A DNA stretch of 63,954 bases, counting the filler, from Caldilineae bacterium (GTDB taxonomy: Bacteria; Chloroflexota; Anaerolineae; DTLA01): assembly GCA_037446815.1 (NCBI GenBank). It is 10 parts of 10 records of this genome, joined end to end, with 100 filler letters (N's around TTAATTAATTAA, not from the genome) between each part and the next. Parts side by side here need not be neighbours in the genome. Positions count along the whole stretch, not along the records: positions 1 to 6,907 come from JBBIHX010000157.1; 9 more parts are not named here. The stretch is one strand, 5' to 3'. The translations under genes and the position numbers were made by a program. Shown here piece after piece: positions 114 to 59,350 of the stretch. The notes under the pieces were generated by a model, which worked only from the letters and a program-made list of their open reading frames with translations, was not told where the DNA came from and made no database searches. Position 1 is the first letter of the stretch, and every line of letters begins with the position of its first letter.

Positions 114-263
114 GACTCGGTTCCAAACTGTGTTGGTGAAGCGCAGACACACTCTCCTCACGTGTCATTGCGAGCGAAGCGAAGCAATCGCACGTCCCGG
201 AGATTGCTTCGGGCGCTCCGCGCCCTCGCAATGACAGTCACCAACAGACTCTGGAACCGAGTC
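114..263. mobile_element. 150-bp MITE (type A cargo, GTCATTGCGAG palindrome)
   Basis: 26-bp TIRs GACTCGGTTCCA(a/g)A(c/g)T(g/c)TGTTGGTGA, 23/26 match; perfect 8-bp direct repeat GGGCGCGA at 106-113 and 264-271. Confidence 0.85.
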
Positions 264-278
264 GGGCGCGAACCCCAT

Positions 279-307
279 TTGCTCACGACCTATCCTCGTC
301 GTATAAT
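279..307 (+). promoter_or_regulatory. sigma70-type promoter for rseP
   Basis: TTGCTC-17 bp-TATAAT upstream of ATG 357. Confidence 0.65.
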
Positions 308-356: not shown

Positions 357-1445
357 ATGCTCACGATAGTGGTCCCGTTGCTGGTCTTGAGCGCGCTGAT
401 GATCGCCCACGAGTTGGGGCACTTCGTCGCGGCAAGACTGGCGAAGATTCGGGTTGAGGAGTTCGGGCTTGGGTTCCCGCCGCGCATTCTGCGGGTGGCC
501 AAGCGCGGCGAAACAGAATACACCATCAACGCCATCCCGTTTGGCGCGTTCGTGCGCATGGCGGGCGAGAACGAGCCCGGCGTGGAGGGCGGGTTCGCCG
601 ACAAGAGCAAGCGGGCGCGGATCGCCGTACTGGCCGCCGGGCCGCTGATGAACCTGCTCATGGCGGCGGTGTTCTTCGCCTTCGCCTACATGAGCGGCTG
701 GCCGACGGTGGCCGAGACCAAGCACGCCATGGTGCTCCGCGTGGAGAGCGGTTCCCCCGCGCAGAGCGTCGGTATCCAGGCGGGGGACGTCATTATCCAG
801 GTGGACGGCATAGAGGTAGACAGCGCGGCCAGTTTCTCGCGCTACGTCAGCCAGAAGGCCGGGCAGGAGATTGTCCTGACCATCCGCCGCGGCGTGGGAT
901 ACTTGCAGGTGCGCGTGGTGCCGCGGATTCCGGTTCCGCCGTACCAGGGCGCGCTTGGGGTGAGCATCACAGAGGAGACGACGCGCGTCGCATTGGAGTA
1001 CTCGCCGCCGCTGGAGGCGTTGTACCTGGGGGGGCGGGAAGTGGTGAACACGCTGGCCTTCACGGTGAGCCTGCCGGCGCTCCTGCTTCGGGAGGGGCTG
1101 GATCCGAGCCTGGCGCGGCCTGTGGGGCCGGTGGGCATCTTCCAAATCACGGGGTCCGCCGCCACACAGACAGCGCAGACCGGCTGGTGGTTCCCCATCC
1201 TGCGCCTCATCGGCGTCCTCGGTGTGGCGCTGGGACTGACGAACCTGTTGCCGCTGCCGGCGCTGGACGGCGGGCGGATGCTGTTCATCGTCATTGAGGC
1301 CATCCGCGGCAAGCGGGTGGACCCGCAGAAAGAAGGCTTCGTGCACTGGATCGGCCTGGTGATGCTGGTGCTGGTGATGATCCTCATCACGTACCAGGAC
1401 ATCGTGTCGCCGGTGCCGCAATTCCAGATTCCCAATCCATTCTGA
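357..1445 (+). CDS. rseP: RIP metalloprotease RseP (M50 family, PDZ domain)
   Basis: HELGH zinc motif, AGPLMN, PDZ region, NLLPLPALDGG motif; start moved to ATG 357. Confidence 0.93.
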   Translation: MLTIVVPLLVLSALMIAHELGHFVAARLAKIRVEEFGLGFPPRILRVAKRGETEYTINAIPFGAFVRMAGENEPGVEGGFADKSKRARIAVLAAGPLMNLLMAAVFFAFAYMSGWPTVAETKHAMVLRVESGSPAQSVGIQAGDVIIQVDGIEVDSAASFSRYVSQKAGQEIVLTIRRGVGYLQVRVVPRIPVPPYQGALGVSITEETTRVALEYSPPLEALYLGGREVVNTLAFTVSLPALLLREGLDPSLARPVGPVGIFQITGSAATQTAQTGWWFPILRLIGVLGVALGLTNLLPLPALDGGRMLFIVIEAIRGKRVDPQKEGFVHWIGLVMLVLVMILITYQDIVSPVPQFQIPNPF

Positions 1446-6599: not shown

Positions 6600-6880
6600 C
6601 ATCGCGCCTGATGGCGGCAGGAGATTCTTCGCGGCCTCGCGCCTCAGAATGGCAGGAGAACGTGCGACGCACCTCCGAGGTGCGTCGCACGTTGTCGCCC
6701 CACGTGTCATTGCGAGCGAAGCGAGGCAATCTCACGCCCCGGCGATTGCTTCGGGCACTACGTGCCCTCGCAATGACGGGTGGGCAGACTTCCTCGCCCG
6801 TCGGGAGAGGGCTGGGGTGAGGGGCACGCTCCCTCGCACGTTGTCCCCCATCTGTCATTGCGAGCGAAGCGAAGCATCTA
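6600..6880. repeat. Mosaic cluster of palindromic repeats (type B half, 35-bp palindrome, type A, BoxC-like)
   Basis: AACGTGCGACGCACCTCCGAGGTGCGTCGCACGTT at 6659-6693; GTCATTGCGAG..CTCGCAATGAC at 6706-6777; GGGAGAGGGGCTGGGGTGAGGG. Confidence 0.85.
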
Positions 6881-7007: not shown

Positions 7008-7151
7008 TTCCCTCTCCCCACGGGAGAGGGCTAGGGTGAGGGCGGCCTCCCTGCTGGGGATTTCTACGCAAAGGCGGGGCAAGACCCAGCCCCGCCGCAC
7101 CTACGGCCTCCTAACTGCATAACGTACAACCGCGTGTTCAGGTGCGCATCC

Positions 7152-8165
7152 CTACAGCCCCACGCCGTCTATGACCGCGCCGCAGTATTCGCATTTCCCG
7201 TCGCGCACATGCCGCTCCCGCACCGAGAACCCAAACCGCCCGATGACGCGCTTGCCGCAGTTCCAGCAGAATGTATTCTCCTCCCGCGCGCCCACCACGT
7301 TGCCGATGTACACGTAGCGCAGGCCCGCCTCCTTGCCGATGGCCCAGGCCCGCTCCAGGGTCTGCACCGGCGTGCTGCCCCGGTCCAGCATCTTGTACAT
7401 GGGGTGAAAGCGGCTCACATGCCAGGGCGTGTCCACGCCCAACTCCTGCGCGATGAACCCCGCCAGTTCGCGCAGTTCGCCCGGGTCGTCGTTGAGGTCG
7501 GGAATCACCAGCGTCGTGATCTCCACCCAGATGCCCTGCTGCTTCATCAGCCGCAGCGTATCCAGAACCGGCTGCAACCGCGCGCCGCACTGCTGGCGAT
7601 AGAACTCGTCGCGAAATGCCTTCAGGTCCACGTTGGCCGCGTCCAGGTACGGGTAGAACGCCTCCAGCATCTCCGCCGTCATGTAGCCGTTGGTAACGTA
7701 GTTGTTCGCCAGGCCGGCCCGCCGCGCCAGCACGGCAATGTCGCGCGTGTACTCAAAGAAGACCGTCGGCTCGGTGTACGTGTACGAGATGCTGCGGCAG
7801 CCGGTGGCCAGCGCATCCTCCACGATGTCCTCGGGCGGGACGTGCCGCCCCACAATGCGGCCTTGATCCCGCGGCATCTGCGAGATGTCGGCGTTCTGGC
7901 AGAAGCGGCAACGGAAATTGCACCCCACCGTCGCCACCGAGTATGACGTGGTTCCCGGATAGAAGTGAAATAGGGGCTTCTTCTCAATGGGGTCCACAGC
8001 CTGGGATATGGGCCGCGCATACACCAGCGAGTACAAGACACCGCCCCGGTTCTCTCGCACGCCGCAGATGCCCGTGTCGCCATCCCGAATGGCGCAGCGA
8101 TGCGCGCAAAGATGGCAGCGCACGCGCCCACCGTCCAACTTCTCGTACAGCCACGCCTCCTTCAT
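7152..8165 (-). CDS. amrS: AmmeMemoRadiSam system radical SAM enzyme
   Basis: N-terminal CHLCAHRC, DPIEKKPLFHF, CNFRCRFC (CxxxCxxC), YTYTEP, C-terminal CxxC pairs. Confidence 0.92.
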   Translation of the reverse strand: MKEAWLYEKLDGGRVRCHLCAHRCAIRDGDTGICGVRENRGGVLYSLVYARPISQAVDPIEKKPLFHFYPGTTSYSVATVGCNFRCRFCQNADISQMPRDQGRIVGRHVPPEDIVEDALATGCRSISYTYTEPTVFFEYTRDIAVLARRAGLANNYVTNGYMTAEMLEAFYPYLDAANVDLKAFRDEFYRQQCGARLQPVLDTLRLMKQQGIWVEITTLVIPDLNDDPGELRELAGFIAQELGVDTPWHVSRFHPMYKMLDRGSTPVQTLERAWAIGKEAGLRYVYIGNVVGAREENTFCWNCGKRVIGRFGFSVRERHVRDGKCEYCGAVIDGVGL

Positions 8166-8170
8166 CAGCC

Positions 8171-8644
8171 TCACCTCCCCAAGTCCAACCGCCACTCGCA
8201 GCCTTCGTCCGTCCTGCGAAACGAAACGGGCCGCGCCGATATGCCCCGCACGTGCAGAAGCGCCGCCAGCAGGCCAACGAGGACACACGGCGGCGCGGCA
8301 TCGGGCTGTTCCGCCCGCAGGCGGTCCACCACCTCCAGGCACGCGCACGCCCGAAAGGTGCACGTCAGGCCGCCTTCCGAACGGGTGAACCCGCACCCCT
8401 CCACCAGTCCTTGCGCCCGCAGCCAGTCGCCGAATGCGCCAACGACCTCCGCCTGGCTTCGCAACAACTCGGGGCTGGGCAAGCCCGCGGCGTCGGCCAG
8501 GCGGCGCCCCGCCGGGGAATCAAAGGCTGCCACGAGGGCCTGGGACAAGGCCGCCTGTGTCAGGGGCGGCTCGTTGTGCGCCGCCAAAGCGTACAACACG
8601 AACCCCAACAGACCGCGACATTCCCCCGGTACGCGCCCATCCAT
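8171..8644 (-). CDS. Hypothetical Cys-containing protein, possibly V4R/methanogen-output-like
   Basis: RBS GGAGG before ATG 8644; CTFRACAC..PPC..C pattern; abuts amrS. Confidence 0.55.
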   Translation of the reverse strand: MDGRVPGECRGLLGFVLYALAAHNEPPLTQAALSQALVAAFDSPAGRRLADAAGLPSPELLRSQAEVVGAFGDWLRAQGLVEGCGFTRSEGGLTCTFRACACLEVVDRLRAEQPDAAPPCVLVGLLAALLHVRGISARPVSFRRTDEGCEWRLDLGR

Positions 8645-8661
8645 CGCCACCTCCCGCGTTC

Positions 8662-8705
8662 TTGACACAACCGCACAATCCGGCTACAATACCCCTATGG
8701 GGTAT
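8662..8705 (+). promoter_or_regulatory. sigma70 promoter overlapped by a CsoR-type operator
   Basis: TTGACA-17 bp-TACAAT, overlapped by palindrome ATACCCC-TAT-GGGGTAT (8689-8705). Confidence 0.75.
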
Positions 8706-8860
8706 ATGGTCGCACCCATACGCGCGGCGCGCACGTGCCTGCGTTCGCGTCCAGTCCGAGCCGCGCCGATTCCCGTGCGAGCCCGCGCGTCATCTCGGGC
8801 GAAGCGAAGGCTTCTGGGGTTGCGACACGATCAAACCACCCTGGTATCGGAGGTACAATC

Positions 8861-9118
8861 ATGGACTTGTCGGATTCTCACACCCTCTCGCCCGAAGCGT
8901 TGCGCGAGGAACTCCAGAAGGCCCAGCGTGCGCTGGAAGACCTGGAGGAAGAGCGACTGCTCACCCTGGGCCAGACAGGCGTTCACATCGGCGCGAAGGA
9001 ACTCAACCGTTTGACCTCCTCGTTCGCGCGGGACGAAGCGCGCCTGCGGGCACGCATCCAGGAACTTGCCGCGCTTCTGGAGCAGCGCCAAGAGCAGCGC
9101 CAGGAGCAGCCGCAATGA
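8861..9118 (+). CDS. Small coiled-coil hypothetical protein
   Basis: GGAGG RBS, ATG 8861, heptad-rich; overlaps the next ORF by ATGA. Confidence 0.7.
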   Translation: MDLSDSHTLSPEALREELQKAQRALEDLEEERLLTLGQTGVHIGAKELNRLTSSFARDEARLRARIQELAALLEQRQEQRQEQPQ

Positions 9119-9309
9119 GCACCGAGCAGCGCATCCGCGAACTCCAGAAGCGGCTGGACGACCTGCGAGCGCGCCTGCCGAAGCATTCCGTCCCTGCCGC
9201 CATGATTCTGGAACTGGAAGCGATGGAAGAGGAACTTGCAGACCTGCAAGCCCAGTCCGAGGGGAATTCTAGCACGTCCTCAGCGCCCGCGCAACCGCGC
9301 GACGCATGA
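9115..9309 (+). CDS. Small helical-hairpin protein (RLPKHSVP motif)
   Basis: ATGA coupling; MSTEQRIRELQKRLDDLRARLPKHSVPAAMILELEAMEEEL. Confidence 0.7.
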   Translation: MSTEQRIRELQKRLDDLRARLPKHSVPAAMILELEAMEEELADLQAQSEGNSSTSSAPAQPRDA

Positions 9310-9460
9310 GATTCCGTTCCAAAGTCCGTTGGCATCTACCGTCATTCTGAGCGGCGAAGCCGCGAAGAATCTCGCTGACCGAGATGCTTCGCCTTCGGCT
9401 CAGCATGACAGGGCCGGGAGGCGGTGCGCTGGACAGACCAACACAAGATGAAACCGACTC
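9310..9460. mobile_element. 151-bp MITE (type B cargo, GTCATTCTGAG..CTCAGCATGAC)
   Basis: Same TIR pair as 114-263, opposite orientation; perfect 8-bp TSD ACGCATGA at 9302-9309 and 9461-9468. Confidence 0.85.
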
Positions 9461-9482
9461 ACGCATGAGGATATGCAGGTTC

Positions 9483-9625
9483 ATCCACGAATAACACGAA
9501 TTTACACGGATATAGCATAGACCCCAAGGGCCTCCAAGACCCTTGGGGTCTGAGCCTAGCATCCCGACTGAAGCGAAGCCATCTCGCGGGAGTTCATCCC
9601 CAGATGACGCGGATGTGCGTGAATG
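9483..9625. repeat. Cluster of 9-bp-period repeats and a CCCCAAGGG..CCCTTGGGG palindrome
   Basis: ATCCACGAATAACACGAATTTACACGGAT; AGACCCCAAGGGCCTCCAAGACCCTTGGGGTCT. Confidence 0.65.
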
Positions 9626-9703
9626 GGAACGGGCGTCGCGCGTCGTTCGCCCGCCTCACCTCACCCCCGCGTCGCCGCCGGCCATCAGCCTCGCGCCGCG
9701 CGC

Positions 9704-9901
9704 CTAGCAACAGTGGCCGTGCGAGTGGTGGCCTTGGTGCGAGCCCGATTCGGCCTGCACGTACTTCTCGGGGTCTTTCTCAAACGCCACCTTGCAACCC
9801 TGCGCGCAGAAGTAGTAGACCTTGCCCTTGTACTCGCTTCTTGCCGGTGCGGTCTCTGTATCCACCGTCATCCCGCAGACTACATCCTTGACCTTCGCCA
9901 T
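9704..9901 (-). CDS. YHS domain protein with His/Cys-rich tail
   Basis: DVVCGM..YKGKVYYFCAQGCK..FEKDPEKY; tail HQGHHSHGHCC. Confidence 0.9.
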   Translation of the reverse strand: MAKVKDVVCGMTVDTETAPARSEYKGKVYYFCAQGCKVAFEKDPEKYVQAESGSHQGHHSHGHCC

Positions 9902-9914
9902 AGCCTCTCTCCTT

Positions 9915-10181
9915 TCATGCTCCGAGTCGTTTCCGAATCTCCTCAAACTCCTGGACGCCGATCTCGCCCGCCGCCAGCCTGCGCCGCGCGATTTCCAGCG
10001 CATCGGTCTGGGCCGGCCCTGCGTCGCCTCGCGGCGCGAACTGCCGCGCCACCCACCGGACGCCGAGAACCACCAGTATCCCCAGGCCGATAACCAACAC
10101 CACGTTCAGGATGAGCCCCAGGATGCCGAGACCTCCCCAGCCTCCCAGGCCCCATCCCAAGCCACCACAGCAGAATCCCAT
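9915..10181 (-). CDS. SHOCT domain membrane protein
   Basis: TM helix plus ALEIARRRLAAGEIGVQEFEEIRKRL. Confidence 0.85.
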   Translation of the reverse strand: MGFCCGGLGWGLGGWGGLGILGLILNVVLVIGLGILVVLGVRWVARQFAPRGDAGPAQTDALEIARRRLAAGEIGVQEFEEIRKRLGA

Positions 10182-10190
10182 GTCTGCCTC

Positions 10191-10409
10191 CTATTGTCCG
10201 ATCTTCGCGCGAAGACTGTCGTACTCCTCGCGCGTGATTTCCCCGCGGGCGAGTCGCTCGTCCAGAATCTGGCGGGCCGTCGGCTTGCTCTGAGCGTTGG
10301 GCGACGCGAGGCCGCTCGCCTGACGCACCAGCAGCGCCACTCCACCCGCGATAAGGGCGATGATCACGCCCCAAAACAACACCATGCCAATCGCTCCGAA
10401 TCCCATCAT
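10191..10409 (-). CDS. SHOCT domain membrane protein
   Basis: MMGFG start, TM helix, ILDERLARGEITREEY. Confidence 0.85.
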   Translation of the reverse strand: MMGFGAIGMVLFWGVIIALIAGGVALLVRQASGLASPNAQSKPTARQILDERLARGEITREEYDSLRAKIGQ

Positions 10410-10547
10410 GGGTGTACCTCCAAGAACCAGTTTTCGCCTCCATCGTACCACACATTGCCGCGAAAGGGCAGGGGTGTTTCGCCTGGGCGCGGCACAGCCG
10501 TTCGGCGCACGGCCCCGAATAGGCCGTTTGGCGCATGGGCGGCGCGC

Positions 10548-10985
10548 CTACTTCCGCACCAGGGTGTACCCAGCAGCCTCCCACGCCGACATCCCGCCGG
10601 CCAATTCCATGACGTTCGTGTACCCTGCCGCCGCCAGCGTCTGCGCCGCCGACGTGCTCATAGGCCCGCTGCGACAGTACACAACAATGCGCGCGGTCTT
10701 GTCGGGCAACTTGCCCAACTGGCGTGAGAGTTCGTTATACGGGATGAACAGGTCGGTTTGCGCGATTTCCCCGTCGTAGGGGACGTGCACGTTGACCAGC
10801 ACAAAATCCTTGTTGGCGAGCATGTCATACAACTGTTCCGGGGTCAGGCGGATGTAGCCCGGCGCGGCCCGCGTTGGAGTCGTTGCGGGCGCCGTCGGGG
10901 TCGGCTGCGGGGCGGCACATGCGGCCAAGAGGCCCACCAGCACGGCCAGCAGCCCTACAGCCCAAAGCGCGATGCGCGATTTCAT
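10548..10985 (-). CDS. Rhodanese-like lipoprotein
   Basis: Lipobox LAAC; VYCRSGPMS active-site loop; LAGGMSAW. Confidence 0.88.
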   Translation of the reverse strand: MKSRIALWAVGLLAVLVGLLAACAAPQPTPTAPATTPTRAAPGYIRLTPEQLYDMLANKDFVLVNVHVPYDGEIAQTDLFIPYNELSRQLGKLPDKTARIVVYCRSGPMSTSAAQTLAAAGYTNVMELAGGMSAWEAAGYTLVRK

Positions 10986-11109
10986 GGCCTTGCTCCTTGT
11001 GTTATCCGATCTACAAGGATTGTACGCTGCTTGCGTGCGCGCACATGCGCCAAATGGCGCGGGGAGAGCGGGGAGAATGGCGGGGAAATCAGCCGACCGG
11101 CGCGCCTAC

Positions 11110-11259
11110 GATTCGGTTTCATCTAGTGTTGGTGAACCGCAGGCGCGATCTCCTCGTGTGTCATTGCGAGCGAAGCGAAGCAATCCCACGCCCCGGAGAT
11201 TGCTTCGGGCACTGCGTGCCCTCGCAATGACGGCTACCAACAGACTTTGGAACCGAGTC
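11110..11259. mobile_element. 150-bp MITE (type A)
   Basis: TIRs GATTCGGTTTCATCTAGTGTTGG / CCAACAGACTTTGGAACCGAGTC; degenerate TSD GCGCCTAC/GTCCCTAC (6/8). Confidence 0.8.
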
Positions 11260-11263
11260 GTCC

Positions 11264-12520
11264 CTACGGCGCGCTGCCCAGTTTCCGCGTGATTCGGTCT
11301 CTGCGATGCTGCAAGTCGGCCAGGACGCGCGTCTTCTGAGCGCTCGGCGGCCACGCCTGCACCTTCGCCAGCGCCTGCTCGGTGTAGGCCAACGCGGCGG
11401 CGTAATCGCGCTGCCCATGCTCGCAGTCCTTCGCCAGTTCCACCAGCGCGGCAACGTCGGTTCCGTATCGCGCCTCGGCCAGGGCGCGCCAGATGTCGCG
11501 GGCCTCGTCGCGGCGTCCCTGTCGCTTCAGGAGCAGCGCCAGGCGGTGGAGCGCCTCCTCGCGGGCCTCGTGCGGCAGGGACGAGGCGATGGCGCGGCGG
11601 TATGCGGCCTCGGCCTGAGCGGTGTCGCCCGCCTGTTCCAGAATCGCCGCGGCGCGGAGCAAGTCCTCGCCCGGAGCGGCAGCGGCATCGGGTGCATGCA
11701 ACAGGCGGCACATGTGCCCGGCCAGCGCCGCCAGCGACACGATGTCGTACAGGTTGTGGTAGAACACGCGCGCGATCTCGCGGGCATCGCCCGTCCGCAG
11801 ATACTCAAAGTAAATCTGCGGCACCAGATACCCCGGCACGTCGGCCTGATCGCGGTAGAACCCCAGGATATCCTTCTCCAGCGCGCCCAACCGACACGAA
11901 GGCAGGCGCGCCTTCCACAGGCGGCGCGCCGGGTGGAGCAAGTCCAGGTGCGGCGCGTCGGCCAGGCGGGGCGGCATGCGGTTCATGATGAAACGCGTGG
12001 TCAGGATGGGCAGGTCAAACCCCCGCCCGTTGAAACTCACCAGCCAATCCATCCCATCCAGGCGCTGGGCCAGCGCGGCAAGCATGGCCGGCTCCTCGGG
12101 GAAGTCGCGCATGAAGTACTGCTCCACGCGGAAGACGTCGTCCTCGTAGAACCCCAGGCCCACCATAAACGCCACCGTGCCCGTGCCCCCCGCCAGCCCG
12201 ATGGTCTCAATATCCAGAAAGGCGGCGCGGCGGTAGTCCAGGCCCGCGATGGCGGGGTCGCCGGCCAGGCGCGCAGGGACGTGGCACGGGCACACCAGCA
12301 GGTCGCCGAGGGTCGGGCCGCCGTGGGCGTGGTGCAGCGGGAACGTCTCCTCCACCAGGTAGAACGCACCGGCGTCGCTCTCCACCACGCGCCCGGACAC
12401 CAGTTCCTCCACCGGGTAGCGACGACGGGCCGGTGGCGCGGGCTTCAGGTGCGCCGCCCCCTTATGCACTCCCAGCGACCTCAGTTTGCGCAGGCGTTCC
12501 TCAAAGTCAGCCAATTGCAA
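11264..12520 (-). CDS. YprB/MrfB-like RNase H-fold (DEDD) exonuclease with TPR repeats
   Basis: FLDIETIGL, SFNGRGFDLP, HLDLLH, HNLYDIVSL; C-terminal TPR-like helices. Confidence 0.88.
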   Translation of the reverse strand: MQLADFEERLRKLRSLGVHKGAAHLKPAPPARRRYPVEELVSGRVVESDAGAFYLVEETFPLHHAHGGPTLGDLLVCPCHVPARLAGDPAIAGLDYRRAAFLDIETIGLAGGTGTVAFMVGLGFYEDDVFRVEQYFMRDFPEEPAMLAALAQRLDGMDWLVSFNGRGFDLPILTTRFIMNRMPPRLADAPHLDLLHPARRLWKARLPSCRLGALEKDILGFYRDQADVPGYLVPQIYFEYLRTGDAREIARVFYHNLYDIVSLAALAGHMCRLLHAPDAAAAPGEDLLRAAAILEQAGDTAQAEAAYRRAIASSLPHEAREEALHRLALLLKRQGRRDEARDIWRALAEARYGTDVAALVELAKDCEHGQRDYAAALAYTEQALAKVQAWPPSAQKTRVLADLQHRRDRITRKLGSAP

Positions 12521-12612
12521 TCAGCCTTTGGGCATGAGCCTTTGCCGTTAGCCTGCGAACCCCACCCAGGAGGACAGGGCCGACGGCCAAGGGCTAGAGG
12601 CTAACGGCTGCT

Positions 12613-13581
12613 TCACGGAAACAGCGGCAACAGCAGCACATCCACGAAGTTGTACAGGACGTGAATGGCGATGCACGTCGTCGTGTTGGTGCGATTGCGG
12701 ATCACGCCCAGGATGATGCCGATGAGCAGAATCTCCAGCGTGGCGGGGCTCAGGCCATACTGCGTGTGGCCGGCGGTGAACAGCAGCGCCGTGATCCACA
12801 GGCCAAAGCGCGGCTGCACCGCGCCGCGGAACAGCACCTCCTCGCCGATGCCCGCCGACAGGCCGATGGCCGCCGCCTTGGCGACGCTCATCTCGCCGAA
12901 CAGGCCCAGGCTTACGCGCCCGATAAGGTCGTACTGTTCGGGGGCAACGGCGTGCCACCCTACTGCCACCGCGTAGTCCAGCAGGAGAAATCCGGCGACC
13001 GCCCCGACGGCGAAGGCCGCCTGGCGCAGCGTGGGCAGGCGCAACCCCAGGCGGCGCAACGTCTCGCCCCAGGCGCGGCGAATGGGCCACCCCACCCCGA
13101 ACACGCCGAACAGCACCATGGCCAAGCCGGTCAGCAGCAGGTCGGCCAGGGTGGCCTCCATCGGCAGCGCGGCCAGCCCTTCCAGCCCGCCGACGAGGAG
13201 CACCTGCCCCACGCTCGCGCCGACGTAATAGGCGGCGAGGGACAGGGCCACCACTCCCACCGGCGACGCAGGGTTGGTGTCGGTGAAGCGGGCGATCCAG
13301 CGGCGAACCGGCGGAAGGAGCACCGCCAGCCCCACCCCGCCCACGAGGAAGAGCATCAGCGCCAGCCCGTACAGGTTGCTGCCCAGGAACACGAAGAACT
13401 CCACCGGCGCATACGGAGCCACGGCGCCCGCGACGGCGAACAGCAGCGCGCCCGCCAGGCACGCCACGTCAATGAGGGCCAGCAGGGCATAGACAACGTA
13501 CTTGACCGCCTCTTGCCGCTCGGCATAGTTGGCCAGGAGCACCAGAACGAGAAACGGGATGAACTGGAGAAATGCCAGCAT
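12613..13581 (-). CDS. CPBP (CAAX/Abi) intramembrane metalloprotease
   Basis: GEEVLFRG, FTAGH, HVLYN motifs; multiple TMs. Confidence 0.9.
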   Translation of the reverse strand: MLAFLQFIPFLVLVLLANYAERQEAVKYVVYALLALIDVACLAGALLFAVAGAVAPYAPVEFFVFLGSNLYGLALMLFLVGGVGLAVLLPPVRRWIARFTDTNPASPVGVVALSLAAYYVGASVGQVLLVGGLEGLAALPMEATLADLLLTGLAMVLFGVFGVGWPIRRAWGETLRRLGLRLPTLRQAAFAVGAVAGFLLLDYAVAVGWHAVAPEQYDLIGRVSLGLFGEMSVAKAAAIGLSAGIGEEVLFRGAVQPRFGLWITALLFTAGHTQYGLSPATLEILLIGIILGVIRNRTNTTTCIAIHVLYNFVDVLLLPLFP

Positions 13582-13626
13582 CGCATCATCCTTTCGTGCC
13601 GCGTTCGGAAACCAAATTGCAGGGCG

Positions 13627-13655
13627 ATTATACCCTGCGCGGGGCGCGGCGGCAA
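13627..13655 (-). promoter_or_regulatory. sigma70 promoter for the CPBP gene
   Basis: TTGCCG-17 bp-TATAAT on the minus strand. Confidence 0.65.
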
Positions 13656-13670
13656 AGTCATGCATGCCCC

Positions 13671-13743
13671 GACTCGGTTCCATCTTGTGTTGGTGAAACG
13701 CATGGACACTCTCCTCGTGTGTCGTTGCGAGCGAAGCGAAGCA
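13671..13743. mobile_element. MITE left part (type A), truncated by the contig end
   Basis: GACTCGGTTCCATCTTGTGTTGGTGAA..GTCGTTGCGAGCGAAGCGAAGCA. Confidence 0.8.
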
Positions 13744-20195: not shown

Positions 20196-20510
20196 ACGTC
20201 ATTCAGAGGCGCGGAGCGCCGAAGAATCTCGCTGACCGAGATGCTTCGCCTTCGGCTCAGCATGACACAATAAGGCCGTCATTCTGATCGGCGGAGGGCG
20301 AAGAATCTCGCACCGCATCCGCGCTATCCGTGCTATCCGTGCTATCCGTGGATGCCGTTTCCCATTCGCGTGGATTCGTGTTATTCGCGGTTACGAAGAC
20401 CGTCATTCCGAGCGGCAAAGCCGCGAGGAATCCCGCAACCCGAGACCCTTCGCTTCGCTCAGGGTGACAGGACCGGGCCCTGCTCCCTCGCCCGCCGGGA
20501 GAGGGCTGGG
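20196..20510. repeat. Mosaic palindromic repeat cluster
   Basis: Three GTCATTC-type palindromes, (ATCCGTGCT)n 9-bp repeats and their inverse ATTCGCGTGGATTCGTGTTATTCGCG, BoxC-like unit. Confidence 0.85.
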
Positions 20511-20610: not shown

Positions 20611-20880
20611 CGCCTCACCCTAGCCCTCTCCCGCGGGGCGATGGCCCTCACCCTAGCCCTCTCCCACAGGGAGAGGGAACGATGGCCCTCACCCTAGCCC
20701 TCTCCCGCGGGGAGAGGGAACGATGGCCCTCACCCCTGGAACGCACCCGCGGGAGGAATGACGATGCGCGTAGATTTCGTGTTATGCGTGGGTATAGGTC
20801 TGGAGATGGCTTCGCGTGGCTCGCAATGACGCACGAGGAGCGTGCGCATGCAATTCGCCAGCACAGGATGAAACCGAGGC
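20611..20880. repeat. BoxC-like tandem units plus a degenerate MITE end
   Basis: CCCTCACCCTAGCCCTCTCCC three to four times; CTCGCAATGAC..CCAGCACAGGATGAAACCGAG. Confidence 0.75.
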
Positions 20881-22096: not shown

Positions 22097-22270
22097 GATT
22101 CGGTTCCAAAGTCTGTTGGCATCTACCGTCATTCTGAGCGGCGAAGCCGCGAAGAATCTCGCCCCTCACCCCAGCCCTCTCCCAAAGGGCGAGGGCGTAT
22201 CGCCTTCGGCTCAGCATGACAGGGTCGGGAGGCGACGCGCGGGGCAGACCAACACAACATGGAACGAGTC
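22097..22270. mobile_element. 174-bp MITE (type B cargo with a nested BoxC-like unit)
   Basis: TIR pair present; TSD GGGCAGGT (22089-22096) / GGGCCGGT (22271-22278), 7/8. Confidence 0.85.
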
Positions 22271-26799: not shown

Positions 26800-26949
26800 G
26801 ACTCGGGCTCATCTTGTGTTGGTGAACCGTAGGCGCTCTCTCCTCGTGTGTCGTTGCGAGCGAAGCGAAGCAACCTCGCGCCCCAGGGATTGCTTCGGGC
26901 GCTCCGCGCCCTCGCAATGACAGATACCAACAGACTTTGGAACCGAATC
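26800..26949. mobile_element. 150-bp MITE (type A), followed 2 bp later by a second partial copy (26952 to about 27033, type B)
   Basis: GACTCGGGCTCATCTTGTGTTGG..CCAACAGACTTTGGAACCGAATC, then GACTCGGGCTCATCTGGTGTCGG..GTCATGCTGAG. Confidence 0.82.
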
Positions 26950-27039
26950 TGGACTCGGGCTCATCTGGTGTCGGTCTGTCTCGCGCGGCCTCTCCCTCGC
27001 TTGTCATGCTGAGCCGAAGGCGAAGCATCTCGGTGGATT

Positions 27040-27230
27040 GTAACCGCGAATAGCGCGAATCTACGCGAATAAGGTCTGGTGGTTGATCTCACCTCTGGAG
27101 GCCGAAGGCCGGGGTGAGGTGTGGCCGCGGGCGCGAGACTCTTCGGCGCTTCGCGTCGCAGCGCGAGCGGGCGCGAACCCGGGCGAATAGGGAACGTGCG
27201 ACGCACCTCCGAGGTGCGTCGCACGTTGGC
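27040..27230. repeat. 9-bp-period repeat, BoxC variant and 35-bp perfect palindrome
   Basis: ACCGCGAATAGCGCGAATCTACGCGAAT; palindrome at 27193-27227. Confidence 0.8.
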
Positions 27231-53219: not shown

Positions 53220-53369
53220 GATTCGGTTCCATCTTGTGTTGGTGAACCGCATGTACACTCTCTTCATGTGTCATTGCGAGCGAAGCGAAGCAATCCCACG
53301 CCCTGGAGATTGCTTCGGGCGCTCCGCGCCCTCGCAATGACAGCCACCAACAGACTCTGAAACCGAGTC
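53220..53369. mobile_element. 150-bp MITE (type A)
   Basis: GATTCGGTTCCATCTTGTGTTGG..CCAACAGACTCTGAAACCGAGTC; no clear TSD. Confidence 0.82.
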
Positions 53370-59027: not shown

Positions 59028-59206
59028 ATCCGCGGATGACACGGATTTGCACGAAATGGGGTTGGTGTGAGGTAGTGGCCTCGCACGTATCGGTTTCGTG
59101 TTGTGTTGGTCAGTCCGCGCGTTGCCTCTCCCTATGCCGCGCTGAGCCGAACGTGAAGCCTCTCGGTTGCCGAGATTCTTCGCGGCTTCGCCGCTCAGAA
59201 TGACAG
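59028..59206. repeat. 9-bp-period repeat plus a degenerate MITE (type B) cut by the contig end
   Basis: ATCCGCGGATGACACGGATTTGCACGAA; TCGGTTTCGTGTTGTGTTGGT..CTCAGAATGAC. Confidence 0.65.
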
Positions 59207-59350
59207 TTCNNNNNNNNNNNNNNNNNNNNNNNNNNNNNNNNNNNNNNNNNNNNTTAATTAATTAANNNNNNNNNNNNNNNNNNNNNNNNNNNNNNNNNNN
59301 NNNNNNNNNAGCGGCATTGAACTCCCTTGCTTCAGCAGCGTGCGTGGGCC

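Follow-up and report, generated by a model that had tools for sequence, protein, structure and literature searches.

A probable Mutator-type miniature element that inserts near promoters and carries REP-like hairpin dimers in a Caldilineae bacterium

Repetitive extragenic palindrome (REP)-like sequences and transposons bounded by terminal inverted repeats (TIRs) are usually handled as separate classes. On the transposon side, the miniature transposable elements with inverted repeats (MITEs) derived from bacterial insertion sequences (ISs) are, in the passages of the review PMC10969869 cited here, short and non-coding, with IS-type TIRs, a duplication of fixed length, a high copy number and mobilisation in trans. 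The element described here, represented at positions 114-263 of a 63,954-base stretch of DNA (hereafter the window) from a Caldilineae bacterium (Chloroflexota, Anaerolineae), resembles them in these respects. Unlike the usual IS-derived MITEs, it reaches an unusually high number (~330 copies, 2.1% of a 3.2-Mb genome), has no partner IS in the assembly and holds an interior that appears to come from an independent palindrome family. We consider it probable that this element is a non-autonomous, promoter-seeking MITE of Mutator type, derived from an IS, whose payload stems from the independent REP-like hairpin dimers of its host. The window consists of ten contigs (C157, C160-C164, C166, C168, C169 and C202), with runs of N between them, of one metagenome-assembled genome (MAG) labelled G000, which comprises 3,187,165 bases in 265 contigs, with 65.4% G+C and a completeness of 93.6%. 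In what follows, G001 to G004 are its four congeners, the other G and all L labels are further genomes or loci, and C-number coordinates (in C4, C99 or C117, for instance) refer to contigs of the named genome, outside the window numbering.

As regards the choice of the target, the relevant passages of Guerillot et al. 2014 (PMC3942029) report that insertions keep a set distance to promoters in p-MULT 3 (TnGBS/ISLre2, oriented) and in the ISKra4 group of p-MULT 4 (both sides), and no promoter-distance enrichment in p-MULT 1 (IS256). In line with what is given there for TnGBS/ISLre2 and the ISKra4 group, the present element points to the Mutator superfamily and inserts 15-17 bases upstream of a -35 box; like the ISKra4 group, it has promoters on either side. 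Unlike in ISLre2 and ISKra4, the partner transposase is not assignable to either family by curated models.

As regards the palindromes, the cited sections of Di Nocera, De Gregorio and Rocco 2013 (PMC3733652) describe CGTC-type REPs that have no dedicated transposase, and REP dimers lying regularly within longer inverted repeats in two species, where the latter were interpreted as targets. Our palindromes share with these REPs the TGTC or CGTC tag followed by AT, the arrangement in inverted dimers, the lack of a dedicated transposase and the occurrence in intergenic mosaics. They differ from them in the shape of the hairpin, which in those sections has an 8-9-bp stem, a 4-5-nt loop and a CCA tail, and here has 5 bp, G.A mismatches and 2-6 bp, with 3-nt loops and no CCA; furthermore, what encloses the dimers here is a pair of transposon ends that have target duplications and an IS to match. 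As in the REPIN/RAYT system, in the cited text of PMC3337134, two inverted REP hairpins form a high-copy, intergenic unit, but here the genome lacks a Y1 transposase, the units lack a GTAG tag and there is a duplication of 8 bp. Like the NTS/SRM-Ssn system (Chenal et al. 2025, PMC11893778, in the part cited), which consists of clustered hairpin repeats starting with HGTCWY, the palindromes are clustered hairpins with such a start; unlike in that system as presented there, the SRM pattern is not enriched, the units do not match it, and the one small GIY-YIG gene, at best a candidate ssn gene, has no TGTCAT repeat nearby. Apart from section 7 of PMC3733652, a keyword search of open-access text turned up no account of REPs carried inside a MITE.

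Copy number, ends and target duplications

Profiles of the window copies detected 637 nhmmer loci in the MAG, 228 of them full length, which together amount to 67,493 bp, or 2.1% of the DNA. The TIRs are 23-bp ends, with 12 outer and 4 inner bases common to both, and a direct search for such ends found 663 of them genome-wide. The initial annotation, which was made from the sequence of the window, had assumed that the two ends occur as pairs and not independently of each other. They mainly do so: 428 of the 663 ends form 214 inward-facing pairs and, of the 235 left unpaired, 144 point towards a contig end no more than 400 bp away, which makes the repeat a main cause of assembly breaks. The lengths of the 214 pairs are mostly 150 bp (122 pairs), 151 bp (33), 174-175 bp (17) and 357-358 bp (four), with a maximum of at most 473 bp, and the number of elements in the 3.19-Mb genome is estimated at ~330. 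By comparison with the 510 TIR hits counted in G000, its four congeners have 47, 47, 12 and 6.

The duplications were evaluated on the 187 pairs of 140-180 bp for which both flanks were available. The flanking 8-mers are identical in 80 of these pairs, and at least 6/8 alike in 139, whereas shuffled pairing yields a mean of 0.475 perfect 8-mers (maximum 3); the excess of 8-bp duplications noticed on a few window copies is therefore a property of the whole genome. In registers 4-7 and 9-12 there are 0-4 perfect duplications, and the identity per flank position is 0.73-0.83 in the 8-bp register versus ~0.3 in every other. Because the excess is confined to the 8-bp register, we regard it as settled that the element was pasted in by an enzyme making an 8-bp staggered cut.

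The focal copy (114-263, plus strand, 150 bp; 166.9 bits with nhmmer over model positions 1-150) is laid out as follows: its left TIR (114-136) is followed by a spacer of 27 nt (137-163), the 72 bp of the hairpin dimer (164-235), a second spacer of 5 nt (236-240) and the right TIR (241-263). It is flanked by the 8-bp duplication GGGCGCGA, read from the sequence at 106-113 and found again, 8/8 identical, at 264-271. As single-stranded DNA, it is predicted to fold into a TIR stem, a central cruciform and a side hairpin, with a free energy of -48.2 kcal/mol (z -7.7).

These duplications also bear on the proposal that the element could be a REPIN-like unit moved by a tyrosine transposase of the RAYT/IS200 type, or by an Ssn-type nuclease system. 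Such a proposal would suit the core, which is an inverted pair of REP-like hairpins, and the presence in G000 of a small GIY-YIG gene (C99:3514-3732, 59 bits). We find it hardly credible, in view of the following lines of evidence. First, a fixed 8-bp duplication is not a Y1 product; the Y1 enzymes of IS200/IS605 are not known to make one. Second, Y1_Tnp (PF01797) has no match in G000, which is 93.6% complete. Third, there is no TGTCAT repeat around the GIY-YIG gene (C99:2900-4400). Fourth, the published SRM pattern has 14 matches, versus 38-51 in five mononucleotide shuffles, and none of the four units matches it.

Mobility also predicts empty alleles, and one candidate was found upon aligning the Logan contigs of four public runs (X1-X4) to window positions 7008-13743, of which X2-X4 cover parts. 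In record 4 of run X1 (2144 bases), letters 416-996 align to window 10530-11109 and letters 1000-2144 to window 11271-12415, so that 161 window bases (11110-11270) are skipped, with 3 letters in their place. This contig is about 97% alike to the window (53 differing letters in 1725 aligned bases), and bridges the copy at 11110-11259 in the pattern predicted for the precise absence of the 150-bp element and one 8-mer, at this one site. The copy at 9310-9460 is present in run X1, where contigs on both sides run into its ends, and likewise in X2 and X3.

Insertion at promoters and the matching insertion sequences

A preference that the initial annotation did not mention appeared when the 304 flanks of 152 oriented elements were analysed. 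Counted outwards from the end of the element, base 16 is the start of a TTG in 37/152 right flanks and 42/152 left flanks, the counts being roughly 0-9 at most other offsets. The full motif TTGNNN-N16-18-TANNNT occurs at offset 16 in 64 of the 304 flanks; with offsets 15-17 allowed, 80 of the 152 elements carry it beside one end or both. Neither orientation prevails (43 on the right only, 46 on the left only). Next to the focal copy, the right duplication is followed by 7 bases, TTGCTC, 17 bases and TATAAT, i.e. by a sigma-70-type promoter (279-307, plus strand) whose -35 hexamer starts 16 bases from the right end of the MITE, and then by the resident gene of an M50 site-2 protease with a PDZ domain (357-1445, plus strand, 362 aa; Pfam PF02163, 5.3e-53; PDZ_6, 2.9e-13). 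The true start of this gene is at 357; the longer frames running through the MITE at 69-1445 and 165-1697 are spurious and result from the high G+C content and the repeat.

Secondary TTG peaks, at offsets 23 and 28, are due to the TTGs in the TIR of a neighbouring copy located 8 bp away, meaning that copies stack at one promoter. The distance to the TIR of another copy is exactly 8 bp in 13/152 and 17/152 flanks of the two sides, and the locus C4:59052-59676 of G000 comprises four copies 7-8 bp apart. In the window, the copy at 26800-26949 is stacked with that beginning at 26952, and the copy at 1-104 with the focal one. This stacking fits repeated hits on the same promoter target. In a few cases from other lineages (L030, L042, L029 and L010), the -35 hexamer extends from base 6, where it overlaps the duplication and lies one helical turn closer to the element.

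As for the enzyme responsible, the initial annotation had invoked a DDE transposase compatible with IS256/Mutator-like or IS1595 families. The first possibility now has a more precise form, that of a Mutator-superfamily enzyme resembling IS256 and ISH6, and the second did not hold, since the IS1595 domain (DDE_Tnp_IS1595, PF12762) has no match in five genomes of the genus. The IS256-type domain PF00872 has no match in G000 either. With one genome scanned per species, the right-end motif of the MITE was found at at least 11 loci, ten of the loci listed being from Chloroflexota MAGs and one from a Planctomycetota MAG. Ten of these loci are short elements or cut ends: eight are 71-148-bp pairs with unrelated interiors, several of which carry perfect 8-bp duplications, and two are truncated by contig ends. 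The contig labelled Planctomycetota holds, at L022, a MITE of 131 bp that has the same TIRs and is flanked by a perfect 8-bp duplication; horizontal spread or a binning error are possible explanations for it.

By contrast with these short forms, L030 is a 1541-bp element, with a right-type TIR at one end, a left-type TIR at the other and a 434-codon frame between them. The encoded protein has an N-terminal zinc ribbon of the IS1/IS1595 type, the only IS1595 model matched being this shared zinc ribbon. It scores barely above the cut-off with Transposase_mut (PF00872, 23.9 bits for a cut-off of 21), and below it with the NCBIfam models for ISH6 (p-MULT 2; NF041731, 47.4 bits versus 240) and IS256 (NF033543, 33 bits versus 150). 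Among 301 Anaerolineae genomes, 17 have matches to this protein at E <= 1e-10, including none of the five genomes of the genus. Eight further IS copies of 1349-1548 bp were found in other Anaerolineae genomes, with ends that fit the TIR pattern of the MITE within 5 mismatches. Six of the eight have one end of each TIR type; in L039, both are of the left type, and in L045 they are divergent. The transposase gene starts at the AAAG-type end wherever one is present. The copy at L035 is flanked by a perfect 8-bp duplication, ACTCCCTG. Autonomous elements with the same TIRs around a transposase, which the initial annotation had recommended to look for, thus occur in other Anaerolineae (L030 and six of the eight further copies).

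The product of these partner ISs, all of which are in other genera, is about 428 aa long. All seven aligned transposases match the IS256 and ISH6 models (best E-values 5e-13 and 1e-12; 33-47 bits) and none reaches the cut-off; ISLre2 is matched by one of the seven (6.5e-5) and ISKra4 by none at E <= 0.01. Searched against the PDB sequences, the transposase profile returned nothing below E 0.18. As ISs with the same two TIR types encode this transposase, we propose that the MITE is a derivative of a Mutator-superfamily IS that falls in no curated family, and whose autonomous form would reside outside the assembled genomes of this genus. Two other sets of candidates were rejected. The weak transposase matches of G001 and G002 are ordinary IS256 genes without these TIRs; similarly, a profile of the seven transposases detects nothing in G000 and, in the congeners, only ordinary IS256 genes or the zinc ribbon. 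The 3.1-6.5-kb TIR pairs L018, L020 and L021 of G002, considered as possible ISs, have no transposase-like frame as judged by eye, and were taken as chance pairings of separate copies. Together, these data would extend promoter-upstream targeting, known in ISLre2/TnGBS and in the ISKra4 group, to a Mutator-type lineage outside the curated families.

The palindromic interiors and their proposed origin

The interior of the element was first described as holding one of two palindromes, A or B, with a length staying at 150-151 bp in five of six full copies. Class A now comprises 119 clear and 23 slightly decayed pairs, typically of 150 bp, with perfect 8-bp duplications in 56/117; class B comprises 27 pairs, typically of 151 bp, with perfect duplications in 11/26. 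In a further class, B+C (16 pairs of 172-175 bp, perfect duplications in 4/16), the B dimer has a palindrome of the GGGAGAGGG type in place of its loop, and 29 pairs of various lengths contain rarer mixtures. Classes A, B and B+C each move as a unit, because each has its own 8-bp duplications. The constant length is therefore valid for types A and B, but versions of 172-175 bp and 358 bp transpose too. The latter are composites: behind a type A copy with a mutated inner right TIR come 185 bp of different DNA, dense in short repeats, and another right-type TIR. In G000 there are four such elements with paired ends (C117:6753-7110, C86:5033-5390, C121:56-412 and C172:24-381), three of which have duplications (8/8, 8/8 and 7/8), and six further such ends lie mostly near contig ends. 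Since this composite moved with duplications of its own, any DNA enclosed by two usable ends is carried along. A cluster of ten ends whose interior is not that of the MITE, considered as an IS, proved to be the same composite.

The palindromes themselves are inverted pairs of hairpin units, whose heads read (C/T)GTCAT in A, B1 and B2 alike. In each of them a stem of 5 bp is separated by a G.A internal loop from a G+C inner stem of 2-6 bp, which is closed by a loop of 3 nt (GAA or GGA); a CCA tail is lacking. Palindromes devoid of TIRs had been reported at two places in the window, and both are there: a type A dimer at 6706-6777 (plus strand) and a type B dimer at 20196-20267 (minus strand). 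In the whole of G000, the heads without TIRs number 39/464 for type A, 60/163 for B1 and 126/235 for B2, so that ~92% of the type A heads are TIR-associated. The free forms include a 68-69-bp B dimer, a 92-93-bp B+C dimer with junctions of the MITE type, and A/B chimeras; the flanks of the free type B dimers are unrelated. In G004, type A dimers are repeated in tandem every 83 bp, in arrays without TIRs that immediately follow a stop codon, and the first-look candidates for the type A core number 356, versus 6 TIR hits. At the level of the class, G011, G017, G023, G030 and G039 have core matches and no TIR hit, and G012 has core matches and one TIR hit. G001 and G002 possess a 100-101-bp MITE with the same TIRs and a fourth palindrome, of the GCGACGCAC type, while G003 has a 143-bp form made of the GCGACGCAC-type palindrome and half a type A dimer. 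At L065 (G003:C288:8700-9100), three type A half-units repeated in tandem every 37 bp stand ahead of a complete dimer and of a right TIR, and there is no left TIR.

Between the copies of G000 and those of G003 and G004 (L061-L114), the type A dimer hardly differs by a letter in its stems and varies in its loop, and its side hairpin shows paired A-T/G-C changes (GGGCAC..GTGCCC versus GGGCGC..GCGCCC) in all three species. Such a conservation, in three species whose intergenic DNA does not align, suggests either a conserved trans-acting partner or an ongoing homogenisation. By their distribution among genomes, the palindromes are a repeat system separate from the MITE.

This separateness is what distinguishes our proposal from one in which the palindromes are the original interior of the MITE and the free dimers and arrays are worn MITEs that have lost their TIRs, with no capture at all. 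The latter would account for the TIR association of 92% of the type A heads of G000, for the MITE spacer bases kept alongside some free matches (C10:13-84 and C110:9869-9936) and for the presence of some palindrome in every MITE version seen. It appears improbable to us, as it is at odds with G004, where 6 TIR hits face 356 first-look core candidates including clean TIR-less 83-bp arrays, with the core matches accompanied by no TIR hit in five class-level genomes and by one in a sixth, with the unrelated flanks of the free type B dimers, and with the autonomous IS copies, which have no such palindrome just inside their ends.

The junctions between palindrome and MITE address another possibility, namely that the MITE is a landing pad and not a vehicle, resident copies being hit repeatedly by palindromes. 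A precedent is provided by the cited part of PMC3733652, where REP dimers inside longer palindromes of Anabaena variabilis and Halothiobacillus neapolitanus were read as targets, and the mixed or nested interiors observed here (B+C, A with other repeats, A/B chimeras) would agree with it. However, more than 100 type A copies have the same junctions, the same spacers, the same 150-bp length and target duplications of their own, and no palindrome-free MITE of ~77 bp exists among the 214 pairs; we therefore give this possibility little credence.

A third alternative is raised by the comparison of the classes, in that A and B could have arisen separately, by internal deletion of IS copies already holding a palindrome, the capture having then taken place in the IS. 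Types A and B do differ throughout their interior, left spacer included, and the 99-148-bp MITEs of other lineages combine the same TIRs with unrelated interiors. Nevertheless, none of nine IS copies has a TGTCAT-type palindrome beside its ends, and the chimeric forms and the 358-bp composite reveal rearrangements at the level of the MITE, making this alternative unlikely in our opinion.

Returning to the proposal of an IS-derived MITE loaded with independent hairpin dimers, several observations weigh against it. First, the differences between A and B extend over the left spacer of 27-28 nt too, which is not what a clean cargo swap would leave; for this reason they are better viewed as two subfamilies than as one chassis with a swapped cassette, and by their sequences they could be old and independently derived. 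Second, no palindrome-free copy was found in this genome, every version seen holding some palindrome, so that the palindrome could be needed for mobility instead of being mere cargo. Third, neither the single L030 protein nor the seven-member profile revealed a partner transposase in G000 or its four congeners, a negative result that falls short of showing its absence, because the MAG, with its completeness of 93.6%, is broken up at repeats. Fourth, the evidence for an empty allele is thin, consisting of one contig and alignment coordinates, at a site whose duplication is just 6/8. Fifth, alignment across species showed no clean empty site for the copy at 9310 or for that at 11110; at both, the coding DNA on either side aligns at 73-89% and the intergenic DNA does not, and G004 has other palindromes at the first of them and has lost synteny at the second. 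Sixth, the flanks match at just 0-3 of 8 bases in 34 of the 187 pairs. Seventh, the copies are not very young, with a mean pairwise identity of 89% (A) and 92% (B).

Taking these points into account, we propose the following scheme for the IS-derived MITE. It would be a deletion derivative of a ~1.5-kb Anaerolineae IS, its right end corresponding to the terminus that the IS has upstream of its transposase gene, and its left end to the downstream one. A transposase of the Mutator superfamily, nearest to IS256/ISH6, in no curated family and with an N-terminal zinc ribbon, would act in trans, possibly at present and from outside the assembly, to cut at both TIR tips and insert the element with an 8-bp staggered cut. 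The site chosen would be one where a sigma-70-type -35 hexamer is 16 bases from the end of the element, in either orientation, and repeated hits on one promoter would produce copies stacked 8 bp apart. Everything between the TIRs would be a passenger, drawn from a host pool of TGTC-tagged hairpin-dimer repeats present in this genus. The palindromes would have entered master copies of the MITE a few times, by insertion, by gene conversion between palindromes, or by transposition from an alternative distal TIR as in the 358-bp composite, and the loaded copies would then have been amplified, such that ~92% of the type A heads are now located beside TIRs. As the MITE lands upstream of promoters and the REP-type arrays lie downstream of the preceding gene, both would meet in the same short intergenic spaces. 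The junctions common to the free and the MITE-borne B+C dimers fit a gene conversion between palindromes. The capture of one repeat system by the other, as first put forward, is in agreement with the independence of the palindromes and with the separate duplications of each cargo version; the clean exchange of a cassette is not borne out, and we infer both the capture and its direction.

Other copies in the window and significance

Each of the two terminal motifs has 8 matches in the window (with at most 3 mismatches), versus none in 100 shuffles. All ten copies first listed with one terminal pair are present, the full ones measuring 150, 151, 150, 150, 150 and 174 bp, and several of the partial ones are merely truncated by contig ends. 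The four duplications first quoted are also as described, i.e. GGGCGCGA and ACGCATGA (both 8/8), one of 7/8 and one of 6/8. Upstream of the focal copy, a type B+C MITE truncated by the contig start (1-104, minus strand) has its left TIR (82-104) facing the focal copy, with 9 bp between them. The type B copy at 9310-9460 (minus strand, 151 bp, 144.8 bits) is flanked by ACGCATGA at 9302-9309 and 9461-9468. The type A copy at 11110-11259 (plus strand, 150 bp), missing from the related public contig, has the 6/8 duplication, and that with 7/8 belongs to the type B+C copy at 22097-22270 (minus strand, 174 bp), which has a third palindrome of the GGGAGAGGG type in place of the B dimer loop. A type A left half truncated by a contig end (13671-13743, plus strand) was recognised from its terminal motif and with nhmmer.

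The type A copy at 26800-26949 (plus strand, 150 bp) adjoins the next one, which begins 2 bp further on and is a type B left end or half running into other short repeats (26952-27068, plus strand). Together with loci of G000, the neighbouring positions 27070-27110 contain at least three more families of short repeats: GGGAGAGGG/CCCTCACCCC hairpins, GCGACGCAC..GTGCGTCGC hairpins, and direct repeats of the AATCCGTG/GATTCGCG type. The type A copy at 53220-53369 (plus strand, 150 bp, 170.8 bits) has flanking 8-mers that are 4/8 alike, a value not reported previously, like the adjacency of the copy at 26800. A decayed type B copy truncated by a contig end occupies 59087-59209 (plus strand). Two additional pieces were absent from the initial list, a partial type A left end (20797-20880, minus strand) and a right-end fragment at a contig start (40653-40698, plus strand). 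A search of the whole window for Rfam families yielded zero matches at the gathering score.

Together, these data confirm the observation made in the initial annotation and support its interpretation; what is newly contributed is the cargo analysis, the comparison with sister species, the recognition of the two IS ends and the one empty allele. The duplications, the matching ISs and the empty allele support the view that the palindromes travel inside a transposon. It is also conceivable, though we advance this only tentatively, that hairpin dimers with no transposase of their own can change vehicle: as the standard payload of the MITE, they would have been multiplied about tenfold relative to sister species, and placed, as a strongly cruciform-forming palindrome, at a fixed distance upstream of well over 100 promoters. 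Should the payload help the MITE in return, for instance through the insulation of promoters from read-through or by bringing the ends into synapsis, the two would amount to a cooperative composite. In practice, recognising the element improves the annotation of Anaerolineae genomes, where it accounts for spurious open reading frames and many assembly breaks. More generally, our findings tie two classes of repeats together and make hitch-hiking on a MITE one testable way for CGTC-type REPs to spread, which, if true, would suggest a general route for the spread of orphan REP families.

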